Assembly (NCBI GenBank): GCA_003864455.1
Contig: BGZN01000003.1
Coordinates: forward strand, 25,484-89,483
Source: Candidatus Termititenax aidoneus
GTDB taxonomy: Bacteria > Margulisbacteria > Termititenacia > Termititenacales > Termititenacaceae
Direction: 5' to 3'
DNA: 64,000 bases
The translations under genes and the position numbers were made by a program. This document shows positions 24,005 to 64,000 of the stretch, piece after piece; position 1 is the first letter of the stretch, and each line of letters begins with the position of its first letter. The notes below the pieces were generated by a model. The model saw only the letters and a list, made by a program, of their open reading frames with translations, searched no databases and had not been told where the DNA came from.

Positions 24005-24005
24005 A

Positions 24006-36507: not shown

Positions 36508-36972
36508 ATGCGAAATATGCGGCGGAAATTTATCGGCGGCTATGCTTATTTTAAAAAAATGAACGATTTGGCGCGTTTTCTTTCCCTGCAAATCCCGGCA
36601 TTAAAAATAGCGGTGCAAGAAATCCTCAACGAAAAATTTACAGAAGAAGAACGGCTGGCTTTTTACAATGGCCGCAAAATCAACGAATACCCGGCTGATC
36701 TGGGCGCGTATGAAGAGCCCAATATGGAAACTCTAAAAAAGCACGCCGAGGAATACCAAAAACTAGTGCAAAAATTTGACCGGCTTTTGACAGCGACCGC
36801 TATAGGCCGGGTTTTTCAGAATTTACGCGCAAACAACGAATTGTTTGATAAGCAGTTAGAAATGTTGGAGGACGAAATGTACCAGAAGGCGGCAGAACAG
36901 GGTTTGCCAGGAGTAGTGCTGCCCTTGAGCGATGAATATCTCGAGATTTACAGGATACTGGGCGGACAATAG
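36508..36972 (+). CDS. Hypothetical protein, 154 aa, immediately upstream of the tandem repeat and the giant operon
   Basis: RBS ggaggcgaggt. Predicted helical. No recognised domain. Confidence 0.5.
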   Translation: MRNMRRKFIGGYAYFKKMNDLARFLSLQIPALKIAVQEILNEKFTEEERLAFYNGRKINEYPADLGAYEEPNMETLKKHAEEYQKLVQKFDRLLTATAIGRVFQNLRANNELFDKQLEMLEDEMYQKAAEQGLPGVVLPLSDEYLEIYRILGGQ

Positions 36973-37031
36973 CAAATACTTATATGCTCATGGTATAAAA
37001 TTGCTGTTTGAGGGTATTCTTTTCCCAGCGC

Positions 37032-37289
37032 GACGTGATAATTTAAAAAAACGTGCAACGATTTTGGGTTGCTTACGAGTCGAGCTTAACAAGCGAAGCG
37101 AAGTTAAGCGAGACCCACAAGCACGCGAAGCGGGCGACGTGATAATTTAAAAAAACGTGCAACGATTTTGGGTTGCTTACGAGTCGAGCTTAACAAGCGA
37201 AGCGAAGTTAAGCGAGACCCACAAGCACGCGAAGCGGGCGACGTGATAATTTAAAAAAAACGTGCAACGATTTTGGGTTGCTTACGATA
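37032..37289 (+). repeat. Tandem direct repeat, 104-bp unit x ~2.5 copies (period 104; the third copy has A8 in place of A7 and is truncated), ending 48 bp before the giant gene's start
   Basis: Unit GACGTGATAATTTAAAAAAACGTGCAACGATTTTGGGTTGCTTACGAGTCGAGCTTAACAAGCGAAGCGAAGTTAAGCGAGACCCACAAGCACGCGAAGCGGGC. Copies begin at 37032, 37136 and 37240. Contains stems GCAAC/GTTGC and GCTTAAC/GTTAAGC. Confidence 0.9.
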
Positions 37290-37336
37290 TATTAGTAAGC
37301 ATAAAACCTGAAACTCGAAAATGTTAGGAGTAAGGT

Positions 37337-40300
37337 ATGTATCAGTATTTGCTTAAAGTGATTTCCGATATAGCAGGCCCGCCGGCTACAGGGAGAATTG
37401 TTAACCCAAATGTCCCGAATCCTCATAATAATGCAGGGCAGCCGGTTTTGGAAACAGCGCTGAGCCCGTATTTGAATGCGCTGGTTAAAGAAAGTAGTTA
37501 TGTTAAAGGTTTTACACTGCAAGAAAATGGAATTGAGCCTAATATTTTCGCCTACAATATAGACGTGTTCGTAGAAGGATTAGGAAACCCTTTTAAAGGC
37601 GTAGTGATTTATCATGATGTTGATGTTGTTGGAGGAAAGAAAGGCGAGCCTTATCTGGCTGTGGTGAGGGACGCCGCCGGAAATCTGAAACTTTATCAGG
37701 CCAGTCCTGAAAATGTGGCAGCCGGAATAGATAGAATAGTTATTGGAGCTGAAATAACGAATAGCAGAGTGGAAACAGGTGCAAATGGGGAGATTACCGG
37801 AGCGGTGGTAGGGGTGGCGGATATTGTGCCGCACAACGATGGTCTGTCTGAAGCTGCCAGAATAGGAACTGGCGCGGCTGAGAGAATTACCGGAATAAAT
37901 TATATCAATAATATTGATGGCGAGGCTCTTAGTGTAAAAGAAATAGAACGGCTGAGAGTTGCCGGACGTTTGGCGGAAATTCCCAATATAAGCGCTTATG
38001 TAGATGATGTAAATAAAATGTTGACGGAAACTCATTCTATTTCACTGCGGCATAGAGAGGGGCCGCTGGGAATAATCGACTGGGCGGAAAACGGATTGGA
38101 AGGCTTAAAAGAATTCTTAGTGCTCACTAAAGCTTATCCGCGCAAAGGAGTATCTTTTTTAGCTAATGCCACGGCCTTTTTGAGCGTGCTGACACCGCAT
38201 CTGTCTATGCTTGGGAATCAGCAAGTCGCTCCTTTCTTTGCCCTTTTGTTCTTTCAATATTTTTATGGTTCGATTAATTATTTTAATAACAGTATGCGGC
38301 TTTTTGAGAAAGATAGTTATGAATCCAATATAAGCTCGGGCGAAAGTTTTGTGCAAAGGTTGAAACTGGACGAAAAAACGGCTGAGTATTTTAAGGATTT
38401 GTTTTCTAATGCCGCGTTAAAAAGCGGGAAATATAAGAATTTTATAAAACTGATAGAACACACCAAAGGAGCTGACGGCAAAGATCAAGTAAACTCTTTT
38501 GGCGAGAATGCCGGCATTACGGTGGAGAAATTTGCGGACGGCAAGATGACTTTAACTATCAATTATGGCATAGCCGACGAGAATAATGAGGTCTGGCGGC
38601 ACTTTATCCAAGAAGATGTCCTGCAGACAGCCAGGGAACAATTGACCGATCTGAAAAGCAATTGGCCAAAATATAATGGCGGAGCAGTCCCTGCTGAGAC
38701 TTCTCCCGAGTATGCGCAATATCTAAAGTCTCCCGAATATAAGGCTTATAAAAAAAGCGCTGAGGGAAAAAAATATAAAAGCCTGGAGGCTATCGTTGGC
38801 ATTATGGAGTCTGTGTATAAACAATCTCAAATTCGCTTTCTCTTGCCGCAGGCCGGCCGCAGGCAGCGCGCGCGCGCTGGTTTTTGGCTTTTTGATTTGA
38901 AAGAGCTTGGCGTAAAAGACGGTTTTCAACTGGCGGGCGACTTGGCCGGCGGTTTGGGCGCTTATATCCATGAGCCTGGTAAAGAAACAGACAATCGGCG
39001 GCTTTTGCAGATCAATTATCATTTGAAAACCGCGGAATTGGAGAATCTAATAAAAGCTTTAAGCGCAAATGGCGCGGATGAAGCGGCGATACAGAAAATA
39101 CGGATTGCTTACAAGATAGTTTCTCAAAACTTCTATGCGGATGCCCAGGGCAATCCAAATTACCAGATACCTGTAGATCAGCGCGCGACACAAGTGGCTA
39201 CGGATCGGCTGACTTTTACTTCTGCTCCGGTGTGGGATGTTCTTCAAGATATTTACACTGCGGCTGAGCAGGAATTTCATACTTTTATGCGCCTGCAAAG
39301 CAATATTCAAAACAACAGCAACAATTCTCTGGATGACGCTCAATCTAGAGGTTTGGAAATAATGGGACGCGACACCGAAGCGTGGAAAAATGCGATGCGG
39401 GCTGTTTTGCTGGAAGGCGGTGTTACGGGAGAGTTGTTTGCGGCGGTGCAGGATTTAAAAAAGCAACTGGCAAATAAAACCGGCTTAACACAGGCTGGCG
39501 TCAATGCGGCTATTGATAGCGCGGCTTTTAAAGACAAGATTCGCGGAATCATAACGAATTATTTTTCAGCTGGCGGCGATCTAAATATCGGGGCTAGAGT
39601 CGACGGCATTTTAAAAGACCTGAAGCAGGAATTTACTATTGATGCAAACGGCAAACTGCAAACTAATGATTATGGCGTAGGGAACACTTTGTTTTATTAT
39701 GTTCTCCTAAATGGCGCGGAAGCCGGACGGGATCTGCGCAGTGTGAACATATTTGAGTTTTTTACGCAGTTGGCTGATGCTTACGGCCGGCATATACCAA
39801 TGTCGGCGATTTTGGCGGAAGCTGTAGCCAAAGCTTTTCCGTCCGATGATTATTCCCGCGATCAGATACGCAAAGCCCTGAATTTTTGTTATCTAAACGG
39901 CAATATGTTGCTGGATGAGCAGTTATACGTAGAGGACGGCCGTTACAAAGGCCGGCAGTTGTGCATAGACCCGCGCCGCGCCGAAGACAGAAATGCCAAA
40001 AAAGCAGATTCGGCGGTGTCGCTGGAGGATTATTTGATGGAGTTCTTCTTCGGAGATGCTGTAAAAGCGGAAGATTATAAAAAGCATCCTGAAAATATGT
40101 ACAGCTTAAACAGGATAGATATTAAGAATTTCGTGAATATTTTAAATCATAAAATAGCTGTTCAAAAACGAGCGGAATACTTTGCCGAACTGACGTTTAA
40201 ATTGAGAACCGGCGACTCGATGAGCCAAACGGAGATCGACAATTTGGTTACTATGCTTACCGAACGCTACAGCATGGAAGAATTTACGGCCAGGCAATTG

Positions 40301-43300
40301 ATCGATTTTCTACAGACAGGGGCTGTGCGCGGCGCTATCGAGACCAGAACAATGGCTTATGAAAATGCTTTCATAGGCTTTGATAGATTAAATAATGTTA
40401 ATTTTATGAGCGATTTCGCTCCGGAAAAGAAGCGGGATATTTACCTCGCTCTGATGGCCTATCAGAAATGGCAGACTGCTAAACATCATAATAAGAAACC
40501 TACTGCCGTGGAAGGGTTGGAAGCGGTTGATCCGGCAAGACTAAGAGACAAAATAGAGAGAGAGAATTTAAAACAAGAGTTAATCCAAGCGTTTGGTTCA
40601 GCAGAAATAGCGGAAGCTATGCTGAGCACAGACTTTTTTAATGCCGATAAAACTTCCGGCGGCATACGGTATACGTTCCGCGCCTCGATAGAGTATGACA
40701 TCAGGCTGGCTTTTTGCCAGGCTATGCAGCGGCTGTATCACGACAATCGGGTGTATGTGCTGGAGCATCCTGCGAATGTAATGAATAAAGAGAAAATAGA
40801 GAAAAAAGAGGTTAAACTTTCGAATCAGGCGATCAAAATAATCAGCGAAAAACCGTTTAAGGGCGAGATAGAATTTGTGCATTCCAAAGATTTAGGAAAT
40901 GGCAAACGTGAGGGCCAATTAATTGTTGCCGCTGCCAATTCCAAAGAGTTTTTGGATTTAATTATGAACCCGGGGTTGACTCCTGATGATCGCAACGAAT
41001 TAATGAGAATCTATGAGGAGTATCATTATTTGAAAGCGGAATATGCGAAAGCGAAAGAGTCCTCAGGCGATAAAACGGTGCCCTTGTCTAAGGGAACGCT
41101 AGAATTGATCCGGAACAAATATAAAGATATTGTTTCTCCCAATGATGATAACAATGATGCAAAAAAAGTAATCTTGTCTTTTACAAATGATTCTTACAGC
41201 ATGATTGCCCTGCTTTGCGATCCGAGCCTGGATAATGTGCAGGATGCGGAAGCGCTGCGCAAAGTGTTTGCGGACTATTTGGAAATAGCCGTGATCAACC
41301 GGACTATTGAGCTGAGCAAGGCGGCTTTTGCTGTGCTGGACGCGCATAGATTTAATGTAGCTGAAATGCGTGAGTACATGGACGAACTGGCGCGGGCAAA
41401 CCCCTATTTGGCTACGCTGGAGCCTAGACTACAGTATCAACACGCCATGCGGGAAATGCATAAAAAAATACGCAATGAACTGGTAAATAGTTTTGGCGAA
41501 TTTTTTGTCGGCCTAGAACAGGAAGCAGAAATGAATAAGCTGGTGGATACGCTGATGGACGCACTGGCTGAAGGCGAAGCGTTTCAAGAAGCTTCGACTA
41601 ATGGCTTGCTGCAACAAACCAATATGCTGGTTTTAAGCGTGGCGCAGTTGCATAACAAAACAATAATGAACACGAACTCTGCTTTGGGAGAGATGACTAG
41701 AACCAGCAGAGATGAAGTCAATAGCTTGTTGAACAACCGTCCTGAAAAGGTAATCGAAACCTCGGAAGGCAAAACAGAACCAAACCCCCAAAGAGAGATT
41801 TTTGATATGTTCTATAACCTGCTTAAATCTTTTGGCGGAAAAAAACTGACCGGACTGGCCACCGGCGCTTACTGGACAGTGCCTTTTGATATCGCGGCGA
41901 AAGGCCTGGCTGGAGATGTGTACCGCGCTATGAATGATGAGAAAAGACACGCTGGTTTTGGCGTAAATCAAGGTGTTCGCGCTGCGTCCGATTTTGGCGA
42001 ATATGTGGCCGAGACTGCTCTCGGCGGCCAAGAAGGGCATAATATGGTTGACATCAAGGGCAATGGAGACAGGCCGATAGCGATATTCTCCCTGGATAAT
42101 ATTGTCGGCGCCAGCAATATTCATCCCGTGCTGCTGGATCTGACCAGCCAAAAATTTATGCAGAACGGCAAAGTGCGTAGTATTTCGGATATGCATACAC
42201 AGGGCTTTATCAGTAATGAAGCTTGGGATATGCAACAAGAGTATGAGGTCTTGCATGATCGGTTTCTGGAATTAACTAATGAGAGCCTCGGCCGTTTTCT
42301 TACTGCAGCAGAAGAGCGGGAATACCTGGATTTAGAGGCTAAATTTGACAGCGGCAAAATATTTGCTGACGCCGCAAAACAGCAGAAATATGAGGATTTT
42401 TTGATTTTGGCCGGAGCTGCCGGAAAAGACTGGAAAGAATTAAACGGTCATGAGACGCGGGTTTTGAATGATTGTGCCGCGCAATATTTGCGTAAGATAT
42501 TTGAGGCCGCCGGCTTGCCGTCTGCTGCGGAAGGGCATTGGAGCGAATATGATTTGCAAAAAATCATTGATAGCGCCAAAGATTTATTGGCTGCGGAGAA
42601 TGATTTCCGGACCGCATTGGATGAGCTTTTGGCTACGCCGGAGATCGGCCTGAATAGAGACACGGCGATGGTAGCTGTGGATATGCTGTATAAAACATTT
42701 TTAGAAGAAGGAAATGACAATAAAGCGCTCAAAGTAGCCGGCAGCAAAGATGATCTTGGCAAACTGCAGTCCGCAGGGTTTATAGCGATAGATCCGCGGT
42801 TGTTTATTACAAAGTATCATGAGTTGCAAAACGGCAAAGGACACAGTATCAAAGGGACAGACAAGGATCAGCCGGATCTAAATTATTTGACGTCAAACAC
42901 TCTAGGTGATTATATTTTTGCGGCGGCGGATCAGGCTGTTAATTCTGGCTGGCAGACGGAGGCAAGAGAGGCCACGGGCGAGCCGGAAACGATGTTTTGG
43001 CTGGACAGACCGGCAGTCTCGATGGACAGCACTTTGAAGCCGGATACTCTGACCATGGCTTTTACCGGACGGACGCCTTTTGAGAATATGCAGAAGTTGA
43101 TTAAAACGGTTATTCAGTACTGGCGTGAACGGAATGGCGCATATGATCTGAAGACAACTTGGAAAAGATATAAAGAAGAAATGATGTACGACACTATCTC
43201 CGCTACGTTCCAGAATATGTGGTATCGCGGCAATCTTTATCCTTTTTTGCCGGTTTTAGATCAAGTGTTTGCTGAAATGGATAAACTCGATATAAAAAAT

Positions 43301-53000: not shown

Positions 53001-56000
53001 GAAAAATCTGCAAACCTGGAAAACGCTGCGAAATGATGTTGATATTTATAAACAATTAACTGACGCCGACCGCGAACGGCATACTTATACTCTGGTGGAA
53101 ATGCTGACCCGTGCGGCTATGCTGTTGGACACGCAGGAAGACCGGCCGCAGGCTGCGCTCGACGAATTGCTGGGGATTTACAGGAACGAAGAATACAATT
53201 TGTCTCGACCACAAACTGCCGCCGCCAAACTCTGCGCCGACATTATCCGCGGCAATGTCGCGGCGCTGGTCGCTGCGAATAAAGAAAAAACTATTGCGCG
53301 TCAGCGTCTGGTCTGGCCTGAAGGACCTGACGGCATTTCTAGAGATTACTTTACGACTGGTTTGGCGGATAATAATTATGAAAAACTAGAGGATAATTAT
53401 AAGGAACTGACGCATAGTTACGAGAAGCGTTTATTTATCTCTTTTCTGCTCAATCAAGCCAAGCTGGGTGATCAACAAGCGTTTAAGCTTTTGCAGGCTT
53501 TGCTGGACAGGGAACAAACCAAAGAAGACGTCGGAGAAGATTTCTTTAAACAGATTGAGCAGCGCTTTGAGTTAGATACGGCGTGGAATTCTCTGGACGC
53601 TGAATACCGCGGCTATCAGCCTGAAAATATCGATGCTGAAAGTATTGCCAAAAAATATCTGGCTTCCTCGTATTCCGCCAACACACGCGACGAAGCGGAA
53701 GATTTGCTCCGCCTGGCTTGGTCAAAAGGCGCTGATCCGCAGAAAGCAATATTGGACGATGGCCAGACCAGAGGTTATGCCGCGCTAATTGTTGAGCCGA
53801 TAGATTTTGCCGACAAACGTGTGCGCGGCGCTTTGGATAATCTGATTTCGTTGTACGCTTACAAGCCTCAAACACGCGATGCCGAACAAAACAAAGGCAA
53901 ACTAGACGCTTTAGTGAAAAGTTTACAGGCCGCTTATGATAGGGCATCTAACGATTTACGCGGCAAAGAATTGTATGTCAAAGCTCTGCTAGCGCAGGCG
54001 GAAACTTATTATCGGCGGAAAAATATGACTGAAAAGGAAAAAGTACTGGAGATAGAAAAAGCGCTGGATATAGTAAAAAGTCTTTTAGCCGAAGAGATTA
54101 GTATTCCCGAAAAAACCGCGCAGTATTATGTTTACTGCGAACAACGCATCCGTCTATCCTTGAGGCAAGCGCAGGACAGCAATAAAACGCCGCTGGAAAT
54201 TGACCGCGCTTTGGAAACTTTGCGTCAGGAGTTCAATTTGATTAGTCCTGACGATTTTCCGACCAATTTGACCGAAAAATTATTAAATTCTTTTATTACA
54301 ATCAACAAACCTGGCCTTACAGATAAAGAGATTGCCGCTGTCCTGACGGATTTGGGCAAGAATTTCGAAGACTGCTTTAAGGATTTTGGCGAAGACCCCA
54401 AAAAAGACATTGAAGCCTGCCGAGAATTTTTTGAGAATATTTGCCAGACCAATTATCAGCGCCGTTTATTTATCAGCATTTTGTGCAGTCTCGCGAATGA
54501 GACATCTGCGGCGCTTGATCCTGATACCGAGAGTGAGCGTGCGGCTCTCATTCAGCATGGCGACAATGATGTCTATGAGCAGGCCGTCGAAGCTCTGCTG
54601 CTGGATAGTGAATATCTGCCTACAGCCCTGGCGCTGGAACTTCTGGGTTCAGAATTTGCGGAGACGATCAAGCCGCGTCTGCGTCTGAACATGGCCTGGC
54701 GTGGACTGACCGGTGAAAATAAGGAATCTGTCGATCATGTGATCTCACCCGATTGGCTGACGGTAGCTGCTGAAGTGGTTGAAGATATTGATATTTTGAC
54801 CGCGGCCAATCCGACGCTAAAAGCCGAATTGCAAGACGAAGTTAATTCTTTGCGTTATTTTGTCCTGATTAAGAGTAAAGATACCGAGAACATCAATACA
54901 GCTTTGCAAGATTATTACCTACCGCGAATTGCAAATGGTATTGCGGACGCGGACGAAAAAACTCTGGTGATTGGCGCTTATGCCTATGATTTGCGTGATT
55001 ACACTGCGGCATTGAGTTATATTGATAAAAATATTCAATATACTGACGAAAGAGACATTCAATCTGACACCGCGCTTGACCCAATACTTTTCTCTATAGT
55101 GGTGGACTGTTGGAGCAAACAAGAGCCAAAGAAGGACATACCCGAAGCCATGGTGCAGCAATACATCAAGGCCATTCAAACCCGGCCAGAACTTTACGCT
55201 AACGACAAAGCCAAGACCGCGCTGGCCAATATCGTCTGCGCTTATGTTGCGCAACAATTGGAAAACGGCAAGGCAGATGCCGCCGGCTGGCTGGACAGCA
55301 TTCTTACTGATTTGGAACACTCCTCGCTGACGCGCTCATATATTGAAAACAGAATAAAAACGCTTCAAGCCAAAGCGCGGATCATACAAAATAAATATAC
55401 AGAAGCGAGCAAACTTTTGCATGAGGTTTTGGAAAAATTTACAAAACCAGCAGAATTGGAAGCCTATAAGGATAAGTTAGAACCGCAGCCTTTTGCTTAT
55501 ATTCACAACGACGCTCTACGGCAACTGGCGCAGGTCAAAGAAGCGCAAGGTGATTATAAAACCGCGCTGGATTTTCTAGATAAATTGCCAGAGACAGAGG
55601 AAAAATATCCCGGCGATGATCCAAAAGAAAAAACCCGGGCCTGGCTTTATGACCGGCTGCAGAGCGCCGGCATCCTAATGAAGCAGGGCAAATATCCGGA
55701 AGCGGAAACCAAATTGCAGACCGTGCGGGAGCAGAATACTCAATTTACAACCGCGGATGACCGCGGCTTGGTTTATTTTAAATTGCTGGATTTGGCGCTG
55801 GCTGAGGCGCGGCAGGCGGAGACTCGGCCAGGATCAGAATTGCGGAGCGCCGCCGAAGGCTGGCTGGCAGACCTGGACGCTCTCGGCCTGCGCCGGCCGG
55901 AAAATATTTTCTTGCGGGAAATCCAGCGCGCGGCCTGCCGCAAACTGCTGTCGTCCGCCGCGCCGGAGACGCTGTACACCGCGGCGAAAAAAGCGCTGGC

Positions 56001-59000
56001 TGCTGTGCCGGCCGGACCGAAACGCGAGGCTTATGCGGATTTGCTGGACGAGCTGCAAGCCTATGCAGATTTAGAGAGCCGGAGTTATTTGCGGCCGGAC
56101 AGCGGCACGAGCATTGCGCCGGCCGAGCTGCCGGAGTATTTTGAACCGGCGGACGGCTTGGCCGCTGAGGAGCATGCGCTGACTCTGCGGACTATTTATC
56201 TCAACAGTCTGCTCACCGCCGGCGACACCGCTGTTTTAACCAAAATAAACGACGATCTAAGCCGGCTCGAGACCGAGCTTGCCAAAACAGACAGCGCCGC
56301 GGACAGTGAAGGCCTGCGGCTGGCTTTGCAAAAATACCGGGCTGAGCTGAATTTATTGAAATACAGTTTTCTAAAAACCCATTTCCAATACGACAAAGAC
56401 GGCAGGGAAATTACCGAGCGTTGGCCTGAGGAAAAAGTGCGCGGCTCTTGGTCAGAGCTGCCGCCGGTTTTTGCCGTTGATTTTGAAAAACGCTTTGCCG
56501 ATTTGCTGCAAACTTCCGGCAGCGACACGCCGCCGTATAATATTTTGGAAGAAAAAACCAGCGAACGGCTGGCTGATTTTGACCAGGCTGAGGACGACGC
56601 TTCTGCAAAACTGGAGTTCTGGGAGTACAAGAAAAAAATTGACGATTTGTTAAATGATCTTGTGGCTTTGGGCGGCAGTTCGCTGGCGGGTGCGCCGGAA
56701 CTGGCGCAGGCGGTCTGCGCCTTGTACGGCTTTGACCCCGCTCTGGCCGAAGCCGAGATTATAGCAAACGGCCAAGAGCCGCGCGGCGGCATTCTGGCCA
56801 TAGTTCGCGCTTTCCGCGCGCAGTTTAAACCGCAGTTTGACGCCGGATTGGATTTCACCGCTGAGGAAAAAGGCTACGGCTATTATTTGCTTTCGCGGCT
56901 TTTGATTAAAGAAGAGAAAGATGTGTCCCGGCTGCTGGAAATCTTGGTGGACGGACATTATTTAGACGGCAAATCCGGCGGCTATTATGCGGAGTCCGGC
57001 GCGCTGCTGATTGATTTTTGGAATAAACAAATCAAGCGCAACAGCGAAAACAAACTGCCGCAGGCAGAATGGAACGCCGTTTTGTGGGATTTGTCTGTAA
57101 GAAAAAAACAGTCCGGCTCAGACTTTCTGCCGGACATTGAGTACACGCCGCGCGGCGGCAATATAGTTTCCAATTACGGCGAAATGAGCTTGACCAAAAA
57201 TTTAGAAAAAAAGATCAAAATTGCGGAAAGAGAGACAGCGCTTGATCTGCCGTCCGGCTTTGCGGAGTGGAAAGAGAAATACAAAGACCGGCTGACTATG
57301 GCTTTGACCGGCAAATACCAATATACCGCCGGCAAAATGCTGCTGGATTATATTGGCGTTTTGATTCGGCGGCGCGCTGAAGAGCAGTTTGTTCCTAAAC
57401 TGGGCGAATTGCAGCAAAAGATCGAGCTGTTGTTTGATTTTGTAGATGATTTTATCAATGCTTTGCCGCCGGACGAGCTGGCCGCCGGCACGTATTATTA
57501 TTATCAGCTCAGAACGGCGGTCCTGAAAACCCAGTATTCCCTGGCGGCTTTGCCTGACGGAGATCAGACAAATGTTTGGAGCGGATATAAAACTGCTTTG
57601 ACTCAAAATTTAAATGAGGTGCGGACTCTTTTGCTGGACAGAAAAGATGTTCTGGATGCTGCCGCGGTTCAGAACGCGGAAAGCGCTTTGCTGCAGTATT
57701 TGTTGACGGTCTGGGACCAGCCGGCCGCTGCCGAAATTGATTCCAGCCAATTGCCGGAAGAAGCTTACTATCTCTATGTGGATTTGTTCTATCGTTTTAT
57801 CGAGGCGCTGTTGATCCAGTATGGGAAATTGAACAAGACCGAAAAAAATCATCTTGATACAGCGATCTCTGTATTTGGAAGCATACTCCAGGAGGAACAC
57901 ACCGGACTGCCTTATCTGAAAAATAATCTTGGCAATGCGGCGAGCCGGCTGACAATCGGGCTGCGTTATTTGTTCGACTGGATCGAGTCCGGTAGTAAAT
58001 CGACCTGGGATACTATTACGACTAACCCAGGGGCTGCCGATGGCGGACAAAAAAACGAAGGTAATACTTCCGATTCCTCAAGCACAATGCAGATACACAC
58101 TTTGGAGCTTCCCCTGTCTTATACGCCGCTTGATTGGCTGACTTTACGCGCCACCGCCGGCGTTAGTTTCTTTAATACTGACTTCAATGAATCGATGACA
58201 CGATTTGAGCGGCGCGAGGGCATGCCGCAGCCATACCCCGACAACGGCGGGCGTCCTCCGCTTAATCTGGAGGAGTTTAAATTCTCTAAATTTGGGCTGG
58301 GCGTGGATTTGGCTACGCCGACCCTGGGCTGGTGGACAGGTTCGTATAGCGCGGATGTGTGGTGGAATCAGACTCCGCAGCTGCGTTCGCCCATTGCCGC
58401 GCAGCGTTACGGCGAGGATGTTTTCTGGAATCAACAGCTGGGGATTAGCGCTTTTGTGGGCAATAAATTTAACCTTGTGCCGAATTCCTTGACCTTCGAT
58501 ATCGATGAGGCGGCTAGCTTTAATCAAACCGCCCGCATCGAAGCTGTTGAGGATTACCGGGGCTACCGAGAAACAAGGGTTTTGGATTCAGTATTCCAAA
58601 ACCGCCTGACCGGACGCTTGAATTTTTCTTTTGGTCAGGGCTGGTCTGCTTACGCTGGCGGCGGCTGGCTGTTTGAGAACGCTCAGGACAGGCGCAGTCT
58701 TTGGGAAGGCAATATTCGTAACGGCTGGCTGGGGGAGCTGGGCTTGTCTTATTACGGCGAGTCGCTGACCTGGGGGCTGGATTTAAATGCCAGCATGCTG
58801 GGACGGGCTTTGAACGCAGGGCTTGGTCTGCGCCTAGAGCCGTTCAGTTGGCGAGGCGTTAGTTTGTTGGCCGGAGTAAGTTATGGTTACTACCCGGAGG
58901 TTACTCTGAGCAGACAAAACACAATTCTGAATAATGGCATGCCGACAGTTACCAAGACGACGGAAACACAGTCTGCACAAAAAAACTGGAAAGGATTTTT

Positions 59001-59040
59001 GGGTTTTAACTGGAATATTGGCGGCGGCAGAAAAAACTAG
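50011..59040 (+). CDS. Giant protein C, 3009 aa: ~2600 aa alpha-solenoid/TPR-like region plus a ~400 aa C-terminal Gly/aromatic-rich beta-barrel-like domain
   Basis: Long Leu/Ala/Glu-rich helical repeat region. The C-terminal segment shows an alternating-aromatic pattern typical of outer-membrane barrels (…LGLRLEPFSWRGVSLLAGVSYGYY…GFLGFNWNIGG). No N-terminal signal peptide is evident. Confidence 0.8.
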   Translation: MIMADVVLNNDGYLSSREYELLLRRQKLPSADKNDAGNIKELTGGLNYDDFIQSIFDEAKNLDLTKKRESLTNLKEICGNSMESNSRYNADQRISLYYALISWTMQSGDYTQAKKLLHNLNPDLKKLEEFNSDVFNTEANTYNPPLTLLKNLTIGVDSYSDKQMWFVSMLIELAEKGQIASLNDDLIKILNSLIRDATGDLKTFFQNAKEYLRLKIQVDYVAADWRNLYAKTIVVRDKQDTLDFLNKFLRVKVLTEIMTNDPDPNRYFTETENINLGDWKNRLSNEAPKAISNAQERIRILIDYYWETIGNLNSNQAREMRDTLVRERDKSLDNLALWQQISGVLTQYFILLAETYKTQGNYTALATHLDWAESKIFQPLEKDKDRRVKSLRDKEGHYMAKFIDFARVDAALLRAKAAPTDQNIPAVLTQVQTLEGQYQSTLLPADRQRLHYARADYYQLCIKQAEKAGNKTLANSYRNEQLERLTGTVLTINESVNNVSAVLNTSYRKNTQSLLGEDKKFFLNALCEAAELHTGLKNKATAEKYYNVILRQSSELAGLLNSYANKTAFSELESRFLILAAQFIVPSKNARPILEKITAVCPPNSDAYIGAQKMLEAYKFVDLLDRLEICKKTGEWQKGLADIDEAYQKKIFNVPDNADDDRARKEELVFQIAEFQELRAAADRTYSPAVWIGDLPAKINDTLGNTTLNDIGIDNTPPNQQRRMYLELSALSRRKDYAGILRLLNKFFVNDVNSKISLRGLDNIGTPSVNYLIDGNNNKNENETPEEQNARFRDNLACAYLEALNTLRTSEQTVPANVFAPSDLAAAFSSRFSTTRLFGVNGQDGILHKKDETGQTADWTDTERRIMFLAAQCLKNWPKDISQKEVYEEIIRRYPLPSPLGYTPVNGVLQTYYYNSDAKRAYWEAQAGLVNYYAKQKNFDEQKTVFAKIEAEYKNRVNPQSVTSYAADAAYIKNLYFNALLMQCLSDLEQENRAAALKNLQTWKTLRNDVDIYKQLTDADRERHTYTLVEMLTRAAMLLDTQEDRPQAALDELLGIYRNEEYNLSRPQTAAAKLCADIIRGNVAALVAANKEKTIARQRLVWPEGPDGISRDYFTTGLADNNYEKLEDNYKELTHSYEKRLFISFLLNQAKLGDQQAFKLLQALLDREQTKEDVGEDFFKQIEQRFELDTAWNSLDAEYRGYQPENIDAESIAKKYLASSYSANTRDEAEDLLRLAWSKGADPQKAILDDGQTRGYAALIVEPIDFADKRVRGALDNLISLYAYKPQTRDAEQNKGKLDALVKSLQAAYDRASNDLRGKELYVKALLAQAETYYRRKNMTEKEKVLEIEKALDIVKSLLAEEISIPEKTAQYYVYCEQRIRLSLRQAQDSNKTPLEIDRALETLRQEFNLISPDDFPTNLTEKLLNSFITINKPGLTDKEIAAVLTDLGKNFEDCFKDFGEDPKKDIEACREFFENICQTNYQRRLFISILCSLANETSAALDPDTESERAALIQHGDNDVYEQAVEALLLDSEYLPTALALELLGSEFAETIKPRLRLNMAWRGLTGENKESVDHVISPDWLTVAAEVVEDIDILTAANPTLKAELQDEVNSLRYFVLIKSKDTENINTALQDYYLPRIANGIADADEKTLVIGAYAYDLRDYTAALSYIDKNIQYTDERDIQSDTALDPILFSIVVDCWSKQEPKKDIPEAMVQQYIKAIQTRPELYANDKAKTALANIVCAYVAQQLENGKADAAGWLDSILTDLEHSSLTRSYIENRIKTLQAKARIIQNKYTEASKLLHEVLEKFTKPAELEAYKDKLEPQPFAYIHNDALRQLAQVKEAQGDYKTALDFLDKLPETEEKYPGDDPKEKTRAWLYDRLQSAGILMKQGKYPEAETKLQTVREQNTQFTTADDRGLVYFKLLDLALAEARQAETRPGSELRSAAEGWLADLDALGLRRPENIFLREIQRAACRKLLSSAAPETLYTAAKKALAAVPAGPKREAYADLLDELQAYADLESRSYLRPDSGTSIAPAELPEYFEPADGLAAEEHALTLRTIYLNSLLTAGDTAVLTKINDDLSRLETELAKTDSAADSEGLRLALQKYRAELNLLKYSFLKTHFQYDKDGREITERWPEEKVRGSWSELPPVFAVDFEKRFADLLQTSGSDTPPYNILEEKTSERLADFDQAEDDASAKLEFWEYKKKIDDLLNDLVALGGSSLAGAPELAQAVCALYGFDPALAEAEIIANGQEPRGGILAIVRAFRAQFKPQFDAGLDFTAEEKGYGYYLLSRLLIKEEKDVSRLLEILVDGHYLDGKSGGYYAESGALLIDFWNKQIKRNSENKLPQAEWNAVLWDLSVRKKQSGSDFLPDIEYTPRGGNIVSNYGEMSLTKNLEKKIKIAERETALDLPSGFAEWKEKYKDRLTMALTGKYQYTAGKMLLDYIGVLIRRRAEEQFVPKLGELQQKIELLFDFVDDFINALPPDELAAGTYYYYQLRTAVLKTQYSLAALPDGDQTNVWSGYKTALTQNLNEVRTLLLDRKDVLDAAAVQNAESALLQYLLTVWDQPAAAEIDSSQLPEEAYYLYVDLFYRFIEALLIQYGKLNKTEKNHLDTAISVFGSILQEEHTGLPYLKNNLGNAASRLTIGLRYLFDWIESGSKSTWDTITTNPGAADGGQKNEGNTSDSSSTMQIHTLELPLSYTPLDWLTLRATAGVSFFNTDFNESMTRFERREGMPQPYPDNGGRPPLNLEEFKFSKFGLGVDLATPTLGWWTGSYSADVWWNQTPQLRSPIAAQRYGEDVFWNQQLGISAFVGNKFNLVPNSLTFDIDEAASFNQTARIEAVEDYRGYRETRVLDSVFQNRLTGRLNFSFGQGWSAYAGGGWLFENAQDRRSLWEGNIRNGWLGELGLSYYGESLTWGLDLNASMLGRALNAGLGLRLEPFSWRGVSLLAGVSYGYYPEVTLSRQNTILNNGMPTVTKTTETQSAQKNWKGFLGFNWNIGGGRKN

Positions 59041-59100: not shown

Positions 59101-61023
59101 ATGTTATTACTTAAACTTATAGCTGATAAAGGCCAACCGCACAATACGCCCGCTGCGCCGGGCGGCAATCCGGATCCGCCCAAAAAATCAAACGTGGTGA
59201 AAGCGGCTGAAGCGGCTGTTTTTGCTGCTTTGGCGGGAACTACAATTAGCTGCACTAATGTTTTGGGGCAGGAAGAAGAGATCTATAATGCGCCGCCTGA
59301 AACCACTGGATATGCCGATCAGGGCTTACCTTACGGCAGTATCGAAATCAAGACGGCCGAAGGCGCTAACAACGCGTTTATTGTAACCGTGCGCAACAGC
59401 CGCAAGCAGGAAGATGAGAATACTCCGGAGAAAGATGTAACCGGCTTAAAAATTCTGCTGAATGAGTTTTATAAAAAATATCCCAATGCGGAAAGCATTA
59501 CTTTTACATTTGAGGATCTGGGCAATTTTGATTTTACCCGGCTGATAGTCAGTCTGCTGGATAAAAACACCAGAGATTATGAATATCTGGGCGATAACAG
59601 CCGTCCGGAGTACGAACAAGTCATGCAGGGCGCGATTTTTGCGGCGCTTTACAAAATGGACTTAAACAGCGGGGGGCTTAATCCGGTCAGCGCTGAGCCT
59701 TATGCCTGGAATAATCCCGCGACTTACGGCATCGCTGTGAATACGGCCGACAAATCCGTAACTTTGGATTTGCGTAAACGCGCCGTGCTTATCCATAATT
59801 TGGAGCATAGAGACCCCCTCACACAGCAGTCCAATGTGGTCATTGCTGATGTGCTGGACAATGCGGGTGAAAGAACTGTCCGGTTTGGGCTGTTGTCCAC
59901 GGAAGGCTTGCCAAAAGACCAGCGCTGGTCGTACCTGGGCTTTAATCTGGAAGACCTGATCGATAAAAACGGCGTGCCAATGAGCGTGAACGGCAAAGTG
60001 TCCTTTAAACTTAGCGGCGCGGCGGGAGCGGCTTTACCGGCGGATTTTGAGTATCGGGTAACGGCCAAAAATACGGACGGCCAAGACCTGGTGTTTTATC
60101 CTGAGGAGCATCTCGGTTTTACCGAACTGCTGTGGAGTGATTTTCATGAAAGTTTTTATCAAACGGCGCATGCAGCCGCAGCGCAGTATCAAAACGACGC
60201 GCTGACGCTGAATTTTGCCAATATAAACTCTTATGTTACAGTCAGCGATGAAACCCCGAAGCTTGATCCTCAGGCGGCTTTGGCTAAAATCAATCTTTTC
60301 GCCAATTATTACAACGCTGCCGGCGGAGAATTGTCTTTGCAGGTCGAGGGCACTGCGGATTTTGATGTGCAAAAATTCCTCAAAGATATTCGGCTGACTC
60401 TCAACTGTGAGGACAGCGGCGGCGGGGCAGTTTATTATTCGCTAGACAAGCAGTTTGCCTATTCCGAGGAGGAATTAAAAAAATTGAGCGGTTTGGCCGT
60501 ATACAATGACGCCGGATACTGGGACATTCGTATCCCGCTGAGTTGCGTAAATACGGAAAAAGGCTTGCCTGCTGGAGAGCTGACTGTTACAGGCGTCTCT
60601 TTTGGCGTGAATAAAGATTCTTTTACTCCTGCTGCGGAAAAAAGCTATGATTATGCTGTCCGCCAAATTGCTATTAAGGCTGAGGCTAATTCGGAGAAAC
60701 ACATTTTTCCGTTCTATAGCGTGGGCAAAACGACGCCTTTAAAATCCATCGGTATTGCCATGCAATGCCAAAACGGAGACACTGTGTCCGGTTTGCAGTT
60801 GAGTGATTTTACTTTGTGTTCAGACGGTGCGGAAAAACCGCTGCCTTATTTGCGCCAGCAGAGCAATTTGCAAAGCGAGGGGCAGGCTGTGAGTTTCGTG
60901 GTGCATACCGGCACACATATTAATGAGGACACGCCGGATGAATATTTTGTGCCGTATCCGGAGGACAAATTGCCGATTAAATATAAAATAACAGCCAGCG
61001 GTGATATTATTAATGTATATTAG
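59101..61023 (+). CDS. Paralog D, 640 aa, Pro/Lys-rich N-terminus then a hydrophobic segment ending in Cys (AAVFAALAGTTISC)
   Basis: RBS agagggaat. Architecture and N-terminal organisation parallel gene E. No recognised domain. Confidence 0.75.
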   Translation: MLLLKLIADKGQPHNTPAAPGGNPDPPKKSNVVKAAEAAVFAALAGTTISCTNVLGQEEEIYNAPPETTGYADQGLPYGSIEIKTAEGANNAFIVTVRNSRKQEDENTPEKDVTGLKILLNEFYKKYPNAESITFTFEDLGNFDFTRLIVSLLDKNTRDYEYLGDNSRPEYEQVMQGAIFAALYKMDLNSGGLNPVSAEPYAWNNPATYGIAVNTADKSVTLDLRKRAVLIHNLEHRDPLTQQSNVVIADVLDNAGERTVRFGLLSTEGLPKDQRWSYLGFNLEDLIDKNGVPMSVNGKVSFKLSGAAGAALPADFEYRVTAKNTDGQDLVFYPEEHLGFTELLWSDFHESFYQTAHAAAAQYQNDALTLNFANINSYVTVSDETPKLDPQAALAKINLFANYYNAAGGELSLQVEGTADFDVQKFLKDIRLTLNCEDSGGGAVYYSLDKQFAYSEEELKKLSGLAVYNDAGYWDIRIPLSCVNTEKGLPAGELTVTGVSFGVNKDSFTPAAEKSYDYAVRQIAIKAEANSEKHIFPFYSVGKTTPLKSIGIAMQCQNGDTVSGLQLSDFTLCSDGAEKPLPYLRQQSNLQSEGQAVSFVVHTGTHINEDTPDEYFVPYPEDKLPIKYKITASGDIINVY

Positions 61024-61040
61024 TAGAAAGGAGAGCCATT

Positions 61041-63011
61041 ATGCTGTTAAAAAATATAAATTTTGAAGATAAACCGAAAACCGGCGGCGGTGTTCCGCCC
61101 AAAGATCCGGCATTGCCTGCTGTGGCTAAAGCGGCTATCGGAGCGGCTGGCGGAGCGATTATGAATAGCTGCGGTAATCCTTTTGATCCCATTGTGGTAG
61201 ACCTTGGCTCGACGACGACCGAAATACCCTCGGATAAACCGGAGGAGAATACGCTGGAATGGTGGAAAGATCAGTATCCGGGTTACCATGTGGATTATAC
61301 GACGGGCGAGCCGCTTTTCCCCCAAATGTCCGGACCGTCTATACCGCCCGACGTGAAAAGCCATGTTGTGGTTTGGGGCAATGCAGGCAACATAATTTTT
61401 GATGATTACACGACAGAAATCTTGATTAGAGACAGCCGTTATCACCCGACGGACAAAAATCAATTGGCGGCGATGAAAGTTAATTTAGCTTATTTTTATG
61501 AACAATATCAAAAAACGCATGGCGTAACGCCGACCGAGATTACCTTTACGATTACGGACATCAAAGGACAAACGCCGCTGCAGGAGTTTCGGTTTTACCT
61601 TTTGGATTCTGTCAGCAGCAAGGAAGCGGAATTAGCCCAGACCGACGAGTACAAGAATGATCCGGAGGGATTAAAAGCCCTGATGCAGGCGCACACCATT
61701 TCCGTTAAGCTGGGCGACACCGCTGAATTGGCGAGGGCTGGTTTTACTTTCAACGAGGCGGAGGGAAGCATTACGATAGATTTAACAAAACGCAGTCTGT
61801 ACCCGGATACTGTCATGCTGGACGAAGGCGAGGGTGATGATCCGGCAGACGCGTCTTACATTGACGGTTATTCTATTGGCAGCGCGGGAGAAATTACTTT
61901 TAAACTGAGAGCCAGACCGGACGGCAAAAAAAGCTGGGGTTTTGTAGGCGTTTATACAGCCGCCGGATTCGATTTGACTGCGGATTCTGTGTTCAGCTAT
62001 ACATTGGGAGATTTTCAGCCGCCGATTTATCCGAATTACTCTGTGCAGGACAAAGGTTATCGCGTTGTTTTCAGCTATGGCAGTGAAAAAAACGGCAATT
62101 ACAGAGAATTAATTTACGACCCCAATGAGTTTTCGGACAGCAGCCCGTCTGCCGTGAATGTGCCGGCTGAGCGCGCGCATGAAAAATATTTAGCTTTGCG
62201 CGACGCCGAGGCTTTGGCTTTGGGCAATAATAATCTGAGACTGAAATTTTACGGCAAAGACTCGCGCGTTACGATCAATGATACTGTGGAGAGGCCGGAG
62301 GATAAGTTTAAGTTTGATGTGGATCATGATGATATGAGTGATTCTACACGAATAAGTTATCTGAAATTTAAGGTGCGTAAAACAACAGGGTTGAGCGGCA
62401 AGGCGGATTTTTTCAGCAAAGTCAGAGTTGGCTTGAAACTCGAAGATGTTGCTGACGCAAACCAAGATGCGAGTTGTCCAGTTGCCTTGAATGGAGGACG
62501 TATGAACTATATTCTAGAAGAGGATTTGGATGTTAATTATTATGAAATATCCGTTCCGCTTTTGTTTGTGGAGGGCATTGGATTTGACAGGCAAAATGTT
62601 TTGAGTGGAGTTTATTTTGAAAGCCTTGAGGCCTTGGAGGGTTTGGAAATCAAGGATATACAGATCACGGCCGTCGAGCAAGGAGACAGGTCATTGCCTT
62701 TGGTTCAAGTTGACAGGACGGGATTTAGCGGTTTTGGCGCGGCGCTGGATAATAAAGACGCGCAAGAAGCCGTGATCTTGCGGGATTTGAAAATCGGCGG
62801 CAGAGAAATTCTGCAAAAGATCGATCTGGACAGCAGAGTTGAGGAGATTTCTATACTGGCTCTCACCGGCACGTATGAAAATGATGATATGTTTAACGGC
62901 GAATTTACCTCTACAGGCCAGGTGATATATACCCTGAAAGCTTCAGAGCCTATTGTCAATAGCAAAGCAATTTTTGGCATTCCGGAAGATGAGGAACAAA
63001 CGGATCAATAA
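61041..63011 (+). CDS. Paralog E, 656 aa (N-terminus …PKDPALPAVAKAAIGAAGGAIMNSC)
   Basis: RBS aaaggagag. Shares N-terminal architecture and scattered motifs with D (…TF.D…F.LLD…; …DL.KR…). Confidence 0.75.
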   Translation: MLLKNINFEDKPKTGGGVPPKDPALPAVAKAAIGAAGGAIMNSCGNPFDPIVVDLGSTTTEIPSDKPEENTLEWWKDQYPGYHVDYTTGEPLFPQMSGPSIPPDVKSHVVVWGNAGNIIFDDYTTEILIRDSRYHPTDKNQLAAMKVNLAYFYEQYQKTHGVTPTEITFTITDIKGQTPLQEFRFYLLDSVSSKEAELAQTDEYKNDPEGLKALMQAHTISVKLGDTAELARAGFTFNEAEGSITIDLTKRSLYPDTVMLDEGEGDDPADASYIDGYSIGSAGEITFKLRARPDGKKSWGFVGVYTAAGFDLTADSVFSYTLGDFQPPIYPNYSVQDKGYRVVFSYGSEKNGNYRELIYDPNEFSDSSPSAVNVPAERAHEKYLALRDAEALALGNNNLRLKFYGKDSRVTINDTVERPEDKFKFDVDHDDMSDSTRISYLKFKVRKTTGLSGKADFFSKVRVGLKLEDVADANQDASCPVALNGGRMNYILEEDLDVNYYEISVPLLFVEGIGFDRQNVLSGVYFESLEALEGLEIKDIQITAVEQGDRSLPLVQVDRTGFSGFGAALDNKDAQEAVILRDLKIGGREILQKIDLDSRVEEISILALTGTYENDDMFNGEFTSTGQVIYTLKASEPIVNSKAIFGIPEDEEQTDQ

Positions 63012-63070
63012 AAATTATATTTTCGCTGTAAAAGGGGGGCAGGAATATGTTAAAATAGTTTGGAGACATT

Positions 63071-64000
63071 ATGCGAAAACTATATAAAATTTTAATGATT
63101 GTTATGGTTTTCTTTCTATCTGTTCCTGCCTTTGCTATGCAAGTGAAGATTTCGACCACGGGAGCAAGTCTGACTTATCCTGTTACCTTGTGGTTGGAAG
63201 ATACAAGCGCTTTAGAGATTAAAACTTATTCTTTGGCTAATGCTAGTGGCACTAGCATAAATGAGGGTAATTATCGCTTCAAGTTGTACTCTAGTAATGT
63301 TGTTGCCGCTTATTCTGGGGGAAAACATACTTACAAAACGGCTTCTATAGTTAATGTTCCATTTACTACAATTACAGTTGCCTTTGATATTCCCAGCCAC
63401 ACCCTCACCGGCTACGTCAAAAATGCCAGCGGCGGCGCTATATCCGGCGCGACAGTCCATATTTTCGAGGCGGATTCTGCCGATGATCCCGCGCATTACT
63501 GGCTGGCCTCGACAACGACTGATGGGAGCGGCAAGTATGAATTTAAGGGCGTGTACAGCGATGTGAACTATCACATCAAGGCCGAGAAGAGCGGTTACTT
63601 TCCAATGTTTGCCTCCAAAACAACAGACGGCGGCGAATATAGTCCGGTCAATATCAAGGGCGGCGAAACTGTTAAATATATAACGCTGCGCGCCGCGCAA
63701 ACAATTCAAGGTACGATTACCAATGGCGATGCCAGCACGGAAGTTTCCGCGTTTTTGGCGGATTCGAGCTTATTAAATAATGACCAGTATGTTTGGGTTA
63801 GTAAATTTGAGGGAAGCAATCCCAGTCCTTATACTTTAGATGTTCCTGCCGGCGTGCCGGTAATAATTCAGGCCAAGCGCGGTAATTATATCACGGCCTT
63901 TTATAAAGCGGGCAGCAGTCAATGGTATGATGGTAAAACAGCGTCCTCGGTGCAAGGCGGAGCTGCTGGCGTGAATATTACTCTGGAGCAGGCCGGCAGT
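63071..64000 (+). CDS. Secreted protein with a CarboxypepD_reg-like (transthyretin-like beta-sandwich) domain, 3'-truncated by the window edge
   Basis: Signal peptide MRKLYKILMIVMVFFLSVPAFA. Motif TGYVKNASGGAISGATVHIFEADSA…TTTDGSGKYEFKGV is typical of CarboxypepD_reg domains. The ORF is open to the window end. Confidence 0.7.
   Translation, partial: MRKLYKILMIVMVFFLSVPAFAMQVKISTTGASLTYPVTLWLEDTSALEIKTYSLANASGTSINEGNYRFKLYSSNVVAAYSGGKHTYKTASIVNVPFTTITVAFDIPSHTLTGYVKNASGGAISGATVHIFEADSADDPAHYWLASTTTDGSGKYEFKGVYSDVNYHIKAEKSGYFPMFASKTTDGGEYSPVNIKGGETVKYITLRAAQTIQGTITNGDASTEVSAFLADSSLLNNDQYVWVSKFEGSNPSPYTLDVPAGVPVIIQAKRGNYITAFYKAGSSQWYDGKTASSVQGGAAGVNITLEQAGS

Follow-up and report, generated by a model that had tools for sequence, protein, structure and literature searches.

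A conserved cluster of genes for giant, putative envelope proteins in Candidatus Termititenax aidoneus and related termite-gut Margulisbacteria

Synthase-dependent exopolysaccharide systems comprise, according to PMC9384988, an inner membrane (IM) synthase, one or more periplasmic modifying enzymes, an outer membrane (OM) β-barrel porin, and an OM α/α-repeat, the last two being fused in BcsC, PelB, and PgaA; the same paper presents the pairing of a hydrolase with an α-repeat-plus-porin protein as defining all four systems. In Escherichia coli, the GH8 gene bcsZ lies directly upstream of bcsC. We have analyzed a 64-kb stretch of DNA from Candidatus Termititenax aidoneus (contig BGZN01000003.1; hereafter the window), in which six consecutive genes, here named A to F, include one for a GH8-like lipoprotein (B) directly followed by one for a very long protein with a predicted C-terminal OM β-barrel (C). 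The organism belongs to a lineage of the Margulisbacteria that is described, in the title of Utami et al. 2019 (via PMC7608387), as attached to ectosymbiotic spirochetes of termite-gut protists. The six genes travel together as a conserved unit, and we tentatively propose that their products form a lineage-specific envelope complex.

The open reading frames (ORFs) of the cluster were called as follows:

37337-45271, + strand: gene A, 2644 aa
45293-49993, + strand: gene B, 1566 aa
50011-59040, + strand: gene C, 3009 aa, GTG start
59101-61023, + strand: gene D, 640 aa
61041-63011, + strand: gene E, 656 aa
63071-64000 and beyond, + strand: gene F, at least 310 aa, continuing past the window end

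The NCBI start of gene C lies two codons further downstream, and both the 3' end of F and the genes beyond it fall outside the window.

Conservation of the cluster and features of its products

All six ORFs were found intact on the + strand, with intergenic gaps of 21, 17, 60, 17, and 59 bp from A to F, in agreement with the co-directional arrangement with short gaps described in an earlier reading made from the letters alone (the sequence-only reading). Each of the starts A to F is preceded by an AGGAG-like ribosome-binding site, and no terminator-like site or hairpin was found on the + strand in any of the A-F gaps. As part of the explanation preferred below, A to F are taken to form one operon. 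The guanine-plus-cytosine (GC) content of the cluster (~0.47 vs 0.48-0.50 in flanking housekeeping DNA) is close to that of the core genome, as previously noted, and the cluster looks native, not recently acquired.

Proteins A and C were 100% matches to NO1_0359, a hypothetical protein, and NO1_0361, respectively, of Candidatus Termititenax aidoneus (Margulisbacteria). Among 5.8 billion clustered proteins, A had one homologue besides itself (P0002, 2849 aa, from a Margulisbacteria metagenome-assembled genome, MAG), and full-length C retrieved nothing but itself; a homologue search with C residues 2400-3009 returned nothing. When the C barrel was run with HMMER against all 1.84 billion representatives, nothing was retrieved besides the barrel itself and two relatives, and a B profile searched against 185,579 species genomes yielded two Margulisbacteria MAG contigs. 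Two metagenome contig scans gave no further loci, and no A homologues were found in the other published Termititenax genomes, whose assemblies are incomplete. With only two to three relatives in these two protein sets, the proteins are orphans, and for four of the six no relative could be detected beyond the clade.

Searches of Pfam, NCBIfam, PADLOC, PHROGs, and PDB sequences gave nothing for A-F besides GH8 and CarboxypepD_reg. The PDB sequence and profile searches with A, C, D/E, and full-length B produced no meaningful match. No A-F family was found among the PADLOC or PHROGs models, and a defence-system or prophage origin was rejected on this ground; none of the matches that the sequence-only reading had named as incompatible with a novel system (adhesins, RTX or type I secretion system substrates, Tc toxins) turned up.

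Four contigs are known to carry the cluster or part of it, each of them assigned to termite-gut Margulisbacteria or recovered from these. Contig JAIRZV010000016 (also a contig of the Joint Genome Institute, JGI) carries dapL and an AbiE toxin-antitoxin pair followed by A', B', C', D', E', and F' (2849, 1593, 3433, 626, 622, and 2294 aa, respectively), with F' ending ~100 bp short of the contig end. B'' and C'' are adjacent on JAITIS010000033, a MAG contig from a lower-termite sample, and a third related locus, on a JGI contig, holds C''', D''', E''', and F''' together. Since the order A-B-C-D-E-F recurs, in the same form in a second genome and partially on two further contigs, the six genes travel together as a conserved unit. 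Likewise, the long ORFs are not frameshift or assembly artefacts, because intact orthologues of all six occur on an independent MAG contig.

The DapL proteins of the window and of the Gx481 MAG are 88.5% identical, compared with 29% for A, 27% for B, 39% for each of C, D, and E, and 52% for the N-terminal part of F. Judged by these identities, the cluster diverges far faster than its housekeeping neighbour DapL. Such divergence would be expected for surface and partner-interaction proteins, in which it is usual.

The features predicted in the individual proteins were:

43961-45175, + strand: membrane-anchor region of A with three hydrophobic hairpins (hydropathy of A and A', alignment)
44174-44323, + strand: motif YSAVED-x36-QxxRWFGA of A, aa 2280-2329, conserved in A'
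aa 1-41 of B, + strand: extended signal peptide with lipobox V-S-G-C41 (h-region, then Cys)
45665-46672, + strand: GH8-like domain 1 of B, aa ~125-460 (motifs, hhalign, Pfam match of an orthologue)
46850-47452, + strand: GH8-like domain 2 of B, aa ~520-720 (motifs, hhalign)
50011-57948, + strand: N-terminal ~2646 aa of C, no signal peptide (hydropathy, Pfam, model of aa 2400-2643)
57949-59019, + strand: predicted C-terminal OM β-barrel of C, aa 2647-3003 (AlphaFold2, DSSP, fold search)
59101-61023, + strand: predicted lipoprotein D, with box MLLLKLIADK, G/P-rich linker, h-region, and Cys51
61041-63011, + strand: predicted lipoprotein E, with box MLLKNINFEDK and Cys44
63071-64000, + strand: 5' part of F, Sec signal peptide at aa 1-22
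63401-63607, + strand: CarboxypepD_reg β-sandwich of F, aa 111-179 (PF13620, E=4.6e-9)

Protein B is composed of two tandem GH8-like domains and a C-terminal part of ~650 aa without assigned domain. Domain 1 carries S-E132-G (acid), the GH8 signature N-S-A-S-D205-A-D207, and W-D355-G-I-R-A (base). The orthologue B', 27% identical to B, matched PF01270 (Glyco_hydro_8) with E=3e-6 (27.0 bits vs a cut-off of 24), and a B/B'/B'' profile aligned with E. coli BcsZ by hhalign (P=0.0013), pairing NSASDADHD with NSASDGD and WDGIRA with YDAIRV. Hence E132, D205/D207, and D355 of domain 1 aligned to BcsZ E55, D116/D118, and D243, E55 being the acid and D243 the base of BcsZ. When the B profile was compared with all PDB sequences, the GH8 enzyme CelA of C. 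thermocellum provided the top two matches, but with E=0.03-0.05. The catalytic Glu/Asp/Asp of domain 1 is kept in three orthologues, all of which have the S-E dipeptide. Domain 2 displays N-S-E531-S-L-V-Y-G, A-S-A-S-D611-A-D613, and YRINTSY in the correct order, with invariant columns in the B-family alignment and an hhalign P of 0.018 against BcsZ; it is weaker (Gly replaces D611 in B', and a base Asp could not be identified) and possibly degenerate. The Pfam match of B', the alignment to BcsZ, and the CelA matches, as three independent tests, argue for B being GH8-like. We conclude that this predicted lipoprotein carries a tandem pair of GH8-like domains, of which the first has a full catalytic set. 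The lipobox had already been recognized in the sequence-only reading, whose statement that the cluster lacked any enzymatic domain does not stand.

For C, AlphaFold2 modelling of aa 2400-3009 with a three-sequence alignment produced helical hairpins followed by 16 long strands, with predicted local distance difference test (pLDDT) values mostly of 70-90 in the barrel and an overall mean of 62.9. DSSP assigned 16 strands to the barrel, the best structural matches being 14-stranded barrels, and Foldseek returned FadL/TodX (E~6e-12). The strands show alternating hydrophobicity, and one C orthologue ends in ...KLPF, a classical terminal-Phe β-signal. The N-terminal ~2646 aa are taken to be an α-helical repeat scaffold, the modelled part being aa 2400-2643, where the helical hairpins were predicted with low pLDDT. 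The best TPR_14 match in this region (aa 1793-1864) scored 20.6 bits, under the cut-off of 23.5, Pfam detected no TPR in C', C'', or P0004, and BLASTP revealed no internal repeats in C at E<=0.01. Of the helical solenoid with a barrel-like C-terminus formerly read in C, the β-barrel was supported by structure prediction and fold search; according to Pfam, the helical part does not form a canonical TPR array.

C, C', and C'' all lack a hydrophobic N-terminus, and the C start is preceded by an in-frame stop at a distance of 2-5 codons in the three genomes (2 codons in the window), so that the absence of a signal peptide in C is real and conserved. A hidden upstream start was rejected for both A and C, given in-frame stops 1-11 codons upstream. 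A B-C fusion by read-through or frameshift, which would give C a signal, was rejected as well, because the frame offsets are 2, 1, and 0 in the three genomes, with no consistent recoding. In MAG Pcl387_bin129 (L002, positions 4465-4477), B'' and C'' lie in the same frame, one stop codon and three codons apart; the frames differ in the other two genomes, and this is therefore probably coincidental.

By BLASTP, D and E proved to be distantly paralogous (E=8e-8, 22% identity over ~595 aa), which was confirmed by a six-sequence alignment with their orthologues, aligned throughout. Neither contains a known Pfam domain, the sole exception in the families being a PKD-like insert in one E orthologue (E''' of L006; PF22352, E=3e-21). 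An h-region followed by Cys was found in the B, D, and E families, in all nine orthologues examined. The lipobox reads L-F-G-C in D' and D''' and L-A-G-C in E'''; T-I-S-C51 of D and M-N-S-C44 of E are off the consensus [LVI][ASTVI][GAS]C at -3. The D/E-family Cys aligns in five of the six sequences and is displaced in the sixth by the PKD insert. With h-region and lipobox, B, D, and E are classed as predicted lipoproteins. The paralogy of D and E, their unusual N-termini, which are G/P-rich, and the hydrophobic segment ending in Cys had all been noticed before, as had the signal peptide and CarboxypepD_reg domain of F, and each was recovered here. In F', three CarboxypepD_reg stretches lie within the first 2058 of its 2294 aa.

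A related N-terminal box, followed by a G/P-rich linker, opens A, B, D, E, and most of their orthologues. Besides the D and E boxes listed above, it reads MYQYLLKVISD in A (all 11 residues identical in A'), MIVFRKLIGQKD in B, MNKWLTKILSDEE in B', MFNKLINDEQ in D', and MYTNLKAFEDK in E', following a pattern of the M-x-x-K-L-I-x-D/E type. It starts at positions 37337, 45293, 59101, and 61041 of the window, and was also found at positions 20317 and 22200 of L005 and 3138 and 4886 of L006. The linker is followed by the h-region of the lipoprotein signal in B, D, and E but not in A; B'' (L002) has a plain lipoprotein signal in place of the box. Among the real window genes, the pattern fits A, B, D, and E only. 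The box is a protein-level feature, which we take to be reminiscent of the extended signal peptide region (ESPR) of type V signal peptides.

By hydropathy, A has no N-terminal hydrophobic segment and no signal peptide, and no domain was found in it with any of the libraries. Conservation between A and A' peaks at aa 1736-2519 (32% identity). Its hydrophobic segments come in pairs (aa 2209-2244, ~2386-2447, and 2567-2613), which are separated by soluble loops and are all conserved in A'; strong hydrophobicity (Kyte-Doolittle 1.89) was seen in one segment alone. If the protein crosses the membrane an even number of times after a signal-less N-terminus of 2,200 aa, nearly all of A would lie on the cytoplasmic side. 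The lack of a signal peptide and the C-terminal hydrophobic segments claimed earlier were therefore supported, and the transmembrane (TM) helices only in part, since a single segment is strongly hydrophobic. An AlphaFold2 model of the C-terminal third, based on two sequences, predicted an all-helical structure with an unusable mean pLDDT of 32.6. No Walker A motif was found in A, and no internal repeats at BLASTP E<=0.01.

The conserved motif of A mimics the TED...QxxRW spacing of processive GT2 synthases without other similarity, with an Asp-to-Gln offset of 37 residues vs 36 in E. coli BcsA (T455-E-D, Q493-RIRW). We have considered A as a divergent GT2 processive synthase and rejected it, given an hhalign P of 0.25-0.44 against BcsA, no Pfam glycosyltransferase match, too little space between hairpin 1 and the motif to accommodate a GT-A domain, and an all-helical, albeit low-confidence, AlphaFold2 model. 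Pfam and NCBIfam revealed no glycosyltransferase family in A-F, even at E<=10 on pieces of A, and none in A'.

Proposed function and alternative explanations

Envelope features were found in five of the six products, namely lipoprotein signals in B, D, and E, a predicted OM β-barrel in C, and a signal peptide in F. To that extent the envelope assembly put forward in the sequence-only reading was supported; that it spans the envelope was not, as A would lie almost wholly on the cytoplasmic face. The explanation that we prefer, tentatively and at less than an even chance, is a lineage-specific envelope complex in which C, as scaffold and pore, organises B, D, E, and F while A serves as an anchor at the cytoplasmic face, and which handles a surface β-linked glycan. 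Such a complex would probably be tied to the epibiotic lifestyle.

The organising pore of this complex would be C, with a 14-16-stranded OM barrel fused to a helical-repeat scaffold of ~2,650 residues. The scaffold, presumably periplasmic, could hold the glycanase B and the lipoproteins at the pore. B is predicted to be a lipid-anchored glycanase with (α/α)6 GH8-like domains, and a chain of β-linked glycan, the presumed substrate, may be trimmed by it while passing through the pore. The paralogous lipoproteins D and E may be accessory; F, a Sec-exported giant with repeated β-sandwich domains, could act as a surface fibre or adhesin; and A, a giant helical protein, would be held at the cytoplasmic face of the IM by its three hairpins, perhaps as a positional anchor. 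The working principle would be like that of the periplasmic and OM half of BcsZ-BcsC, PelA-PelB-PelC, and PgaB-PgaA, and the resulting surface, together with F, might mediate contact with partner cells. Throughout, we infer that the A-F products assemble with one another.

A number of observations weigh against this explanation. No glycosyltransferase or synthase was found in the cluster or in the upstream ORFs scanned over ~37 kb, and A showed no similarity to BcsA by hhalign. The C family and barrel gave P>=0.13 against E. coli BcsC in hhalign comparisons; a BcsC homologue was rejected on this ground, architecture alone being in common. The barrel is more like 14-stranded uptake channels (CymA, OmpG, FadL) than BcsC, PelB, or PgaA, and its model was built on only three sequences, with the mean pLDDT of 62.9 given above. 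The C repeats are not canonical TPRs, unlike those of genuine TPR proteins encoded elsewhere in the window, which reach E=1e-63. C has neither a signal peptide nor room for a hidden one, which leaves its route to the OM unexplained. B itself had no Pfam GH8 match at E<=10, nor did B''. Finally, should the hydrophobic segments of A form hairpins, hardly any of the protein would face the periplasm.

The resemblance of the barrel to uptake channels raises the alternative of glycan foraging, in which B, on the cell surface or within the periplasm, would cut (hemi)cellulose- or partner-derived β-glycans that D, E, and F bind, and the C barrel would import the oligosaccharides, loosely as in Sus-like or Fibrobacter-type OM cellulolytic complexes. 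A GH94 cellodextrin phosphorylase gene, also present in the window, would suit such a system. The similarity of the barrel, however, is mostly one of strand number, with 7-8% sequence identity, and no TonB-dependent transporter, SusD, or carbohydrate-binding module (CBM) domain was detected. There is no obvious uptake role for a 2,650-aa scaffold or a 2,644-aa IM-anchored A, very fast divergence is unusual for nutrient-uptake machinery, and C would lack a signal peptide here too. We consider import unlikely.

Divergence on this scale relative to DapL would suit a structural organelle for attachment to the spirochete partner, with A inside, C in the OM, and F as a fibre, in which no polymer is transported and the GH8-like domains are lectin-like binders or local cutters of partner surface glycan. 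The organism is an epibiont, the cluster was found only on four termite-gut Margulisbacteria contigs, the 2294-aa F' has repeated β-sandwich domains and E''' a PKD domain, and the mostly helical A has hairpin anchors, all of which would agree with this arrangement. Domain 1 of B, however, keeps all its catalytic residues, which argues for catalysis and not for mere binding; none of the known adhesin domains, such as cadherin, Big, or FN3, exceeded the Pfam thresholds in A-E; and no A homologues were found in the other, incomplete, published Termititenax genomes. An organelle of this purely structural kind seems rather improbable to us.

Less expected still would be an undescribed envelope machine in which the signal-less C is exported and assembled through a dedicated route involving A and the box-marked lipoproteins, yielding an organelle both for attachment to another bacterium and for processing its surface glycans in the three-layered symbiosis; we regard this as quite unlikely.

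The lack of signal peptides in A and C in every genome examined, unlike B, D, E, and F, would also be compatible with translocated effectors, A and C leaving by a non-Sec route and inserting in partner membranes with the aid of B, D, and E. C would then form a pore in the spirochete OM, and A, whose hydrophobic segments come in closely spaced pairs, would have bilobed hairpins like those of Inc proteins; the rapid divergence would be accounted for. However, PADLOC and Pfam revealed no secretion-system component or ATPase in the cluster, A has no Walker A motif, and the C-terminal Phe β-signal of a C orthologue points to insertion in the organism's own OM by BAM. Besides, proteins of ~3000 aa exceed, to our knowledge, the cargo of known contact-dependent injectors. 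Translocation into the partner is thus very improbable. That the genes are unrelated neighbours or decaying remnants, as orphan proteins of very low conservation might suggest, can practically be dismissed, given that all ORFs are intact over 8-9 kb each, the gene order is kept in independent genomes, and conserved motifs, signals, and a leader are present.

Returning to the envelope complex that we prefer, its assembly as proposed would make the cluster the first candidate at the molecular level for the means by which Margulisbacteria epibionts cling to the spirochetes they ride on or obtain food from them. We know of no machinery for bacterium-on-bacterium attachment of this kind. The cluster also shows that a layout of hydrolase and putative α-repeat/porin can exist without a recognisable synthase. 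Three features deserve attention regardless of function: a 3,000-residue protein with a predicted OM barrel and no signal peptide in three genomes, a tandem, predicted lipid-anchored GH8-like enzyme, and an N-terminal box common to three lipoproteins and a cytoplasmic giant. The practical limits are an uncultured organism and a family of only four known contigs, and all functional roles are ones that we infer.

Leader of gene A and neighbouring genes

The elements surrounding the cluster in the window were:

32582-33265: IS200-like (Y1_Tnp) transposase gene, shortly before miaA-dapF-dapL and the cluster
36508-36972, + strand: 154-aa gene (ORF call)
37030-37287, + strand: tandem repeat, period 104, 2.5 copies, 99% matches (Tandem Repeats Finder)
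37241-37429, + strand: conserved leader, ~95 nt before the ATG of A and the first ~93 nt of coding sequence (DNA alignment)

The leader, through the first ~31 codons of A, has 84-92% DNA identity to the orthologous locus (L001, ~2986-3178), synonymous sites included, whereas the A proteins of the same two loci are only 29% identical; blastn of the leader gave 84% over 194 nt. It carries the hairpin CTTAC-GATATATTA-GTAAG. A known riboswitch or RNA was rejected, Rfam having returned nothing at E<=10, and the fold was no more stable than that of shuffled sequence (z=-0.7). The leader is probably a promoter, a 5' untranslated region, or a translation-initiation element. The 104-bp tandem repeat noted by the earlier reader was confirmed as real by Tandem Repeats Finder; by alignment overlap, it is a duplication of the upstream half of this leader, and exact copies occur at this place only within the window.

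Upstream of the cluster, the window contains the IS200-like transposase gene followed by miaA, dapF, and dapL. In L001 (positions 1566-2886), an AbiEi/AbiEii toxin-antitoxin pair lies between dapL and A', where the window has the 154-aa gene and the tandem repeat. The 154-aa gene, noted earlier as lying immediately upstream, is not conserved with the cluster, the AbiE pair standing in its place in the related MAG, and it was set apart from the six genes.

Further upstream, an island of low GC content (~15970-27900; 0.34-0.38 vs ~0.48-0.50) encodes a serine recombinase, a ParB-like protein, canonical TPR proteins, helix-turn-helix regulators, and a Rep_trans/Phage_CRI-type replication protein, together with two ArdC-like anti-restriction proteins, of which one has a zincin peptidase domain. 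The island probably represents an integrated element resembling a plasmid, an integrative and conjugative element, or an inovirus. Adjoining it, positions 28206-31253 (- strand) encode a 1015-aa AAA_16 and TPR protein (STAND/MalT-like ATPase). Near the window start, the GH94 cellobiose/cellodextrin phosphorylase gene (1242-3689, E=4e-126), whose presence indicates that the organism uses cellodextrins, is followed by a Fic/DOC protein gene (3695-4807, - strand).

Comparison with known systems

The giant proteins of Omnitrophota and other bacteria, proposed for attachment and carbohydrate degradation by West-Roberts et al. (bioRxiv 10.1101/2023.11.21.568195), resemble A-F in being very large, mostly unannotated proteins of a bacterium living on other cells. 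As described there, they exceed 30,000 aa, with many TM regions, SecA-like helicase domains, and nearby type II secretion system genes, none of which is seen here. No sequence relation was found between A-F and these giants. The likeness to SusC/SusD-like loci is limited to the CarboxypepD_reg domain, as neither a TonB-dependent transporter (Plug and TonB_dep_Rec) nor a SusD-like lipoprotein was detected in A-F or within residues 1-2058 of F'.

Type V autotransporters differ in several respects: C has no signal peptide, its passenger-like region is predicted to be helical and not a β-helix, its barrel has 14-16 strands (more than 12) with no Autotransporter Pfam match, and the N-terminal box lies on the lipoproteins and A, not on C. 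CymA, OmpG, and FadL, 7-10% identical in sequence to the C barrel, are stand-alone channels of 250-450 aa with signal peptides, whereas C has an N-terminal extension of ~2,650 aa and no signal peptide. With the GH8 enzymes BcsZ and CelA, B has in common A-S-D-A-D, the SEG acid Glu, the (W/Y)D(G/A)IR base Asp, and the motif order; B differs in being very divergent, below Pfam detection, duplicated in tandem, and embedded in a 1566-aa lipoprotein.

The Bcs, Pel, Pga, and alginate systems are closer in design. B, a GH8-like lipoprotein (GH8 being the family of BcsZ), is encoded directly upstream of C, with its long, putatively helical-repeat region and predicted OM barrel; additional lipoproteins, D and E, adjoin the porin gene C, in the manner of PelC; and a large, putatively IM-associated protein, A, comes first in the cluster. 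In contrast, neither a glycosyltransferase nor a cyclic di-GMP receptor was found here, and the helical region of C (~2,650 aa) is more than three times as long as the entire N-terminal part of BcsC of E. coli, a protein of 1157 aa. C further differs from BcsC in lacking a signal peptide, in repeats that are not canonical TPRs, and in a barrel nearer to 14-stranded channels, and B has two GH8-like domains, ~650 further residues, and a predicted lipid anchor. The cluster thus has the modifying enzyme (B) and the OM barrel (C) of a synthase-dependent system and lacks a synthase, homology to BcsC, and a Sec-exported porin. No known system has this composition, and, by analogy, the B-C pair is the only specific resemblance to a known system, one of design and not of membership.

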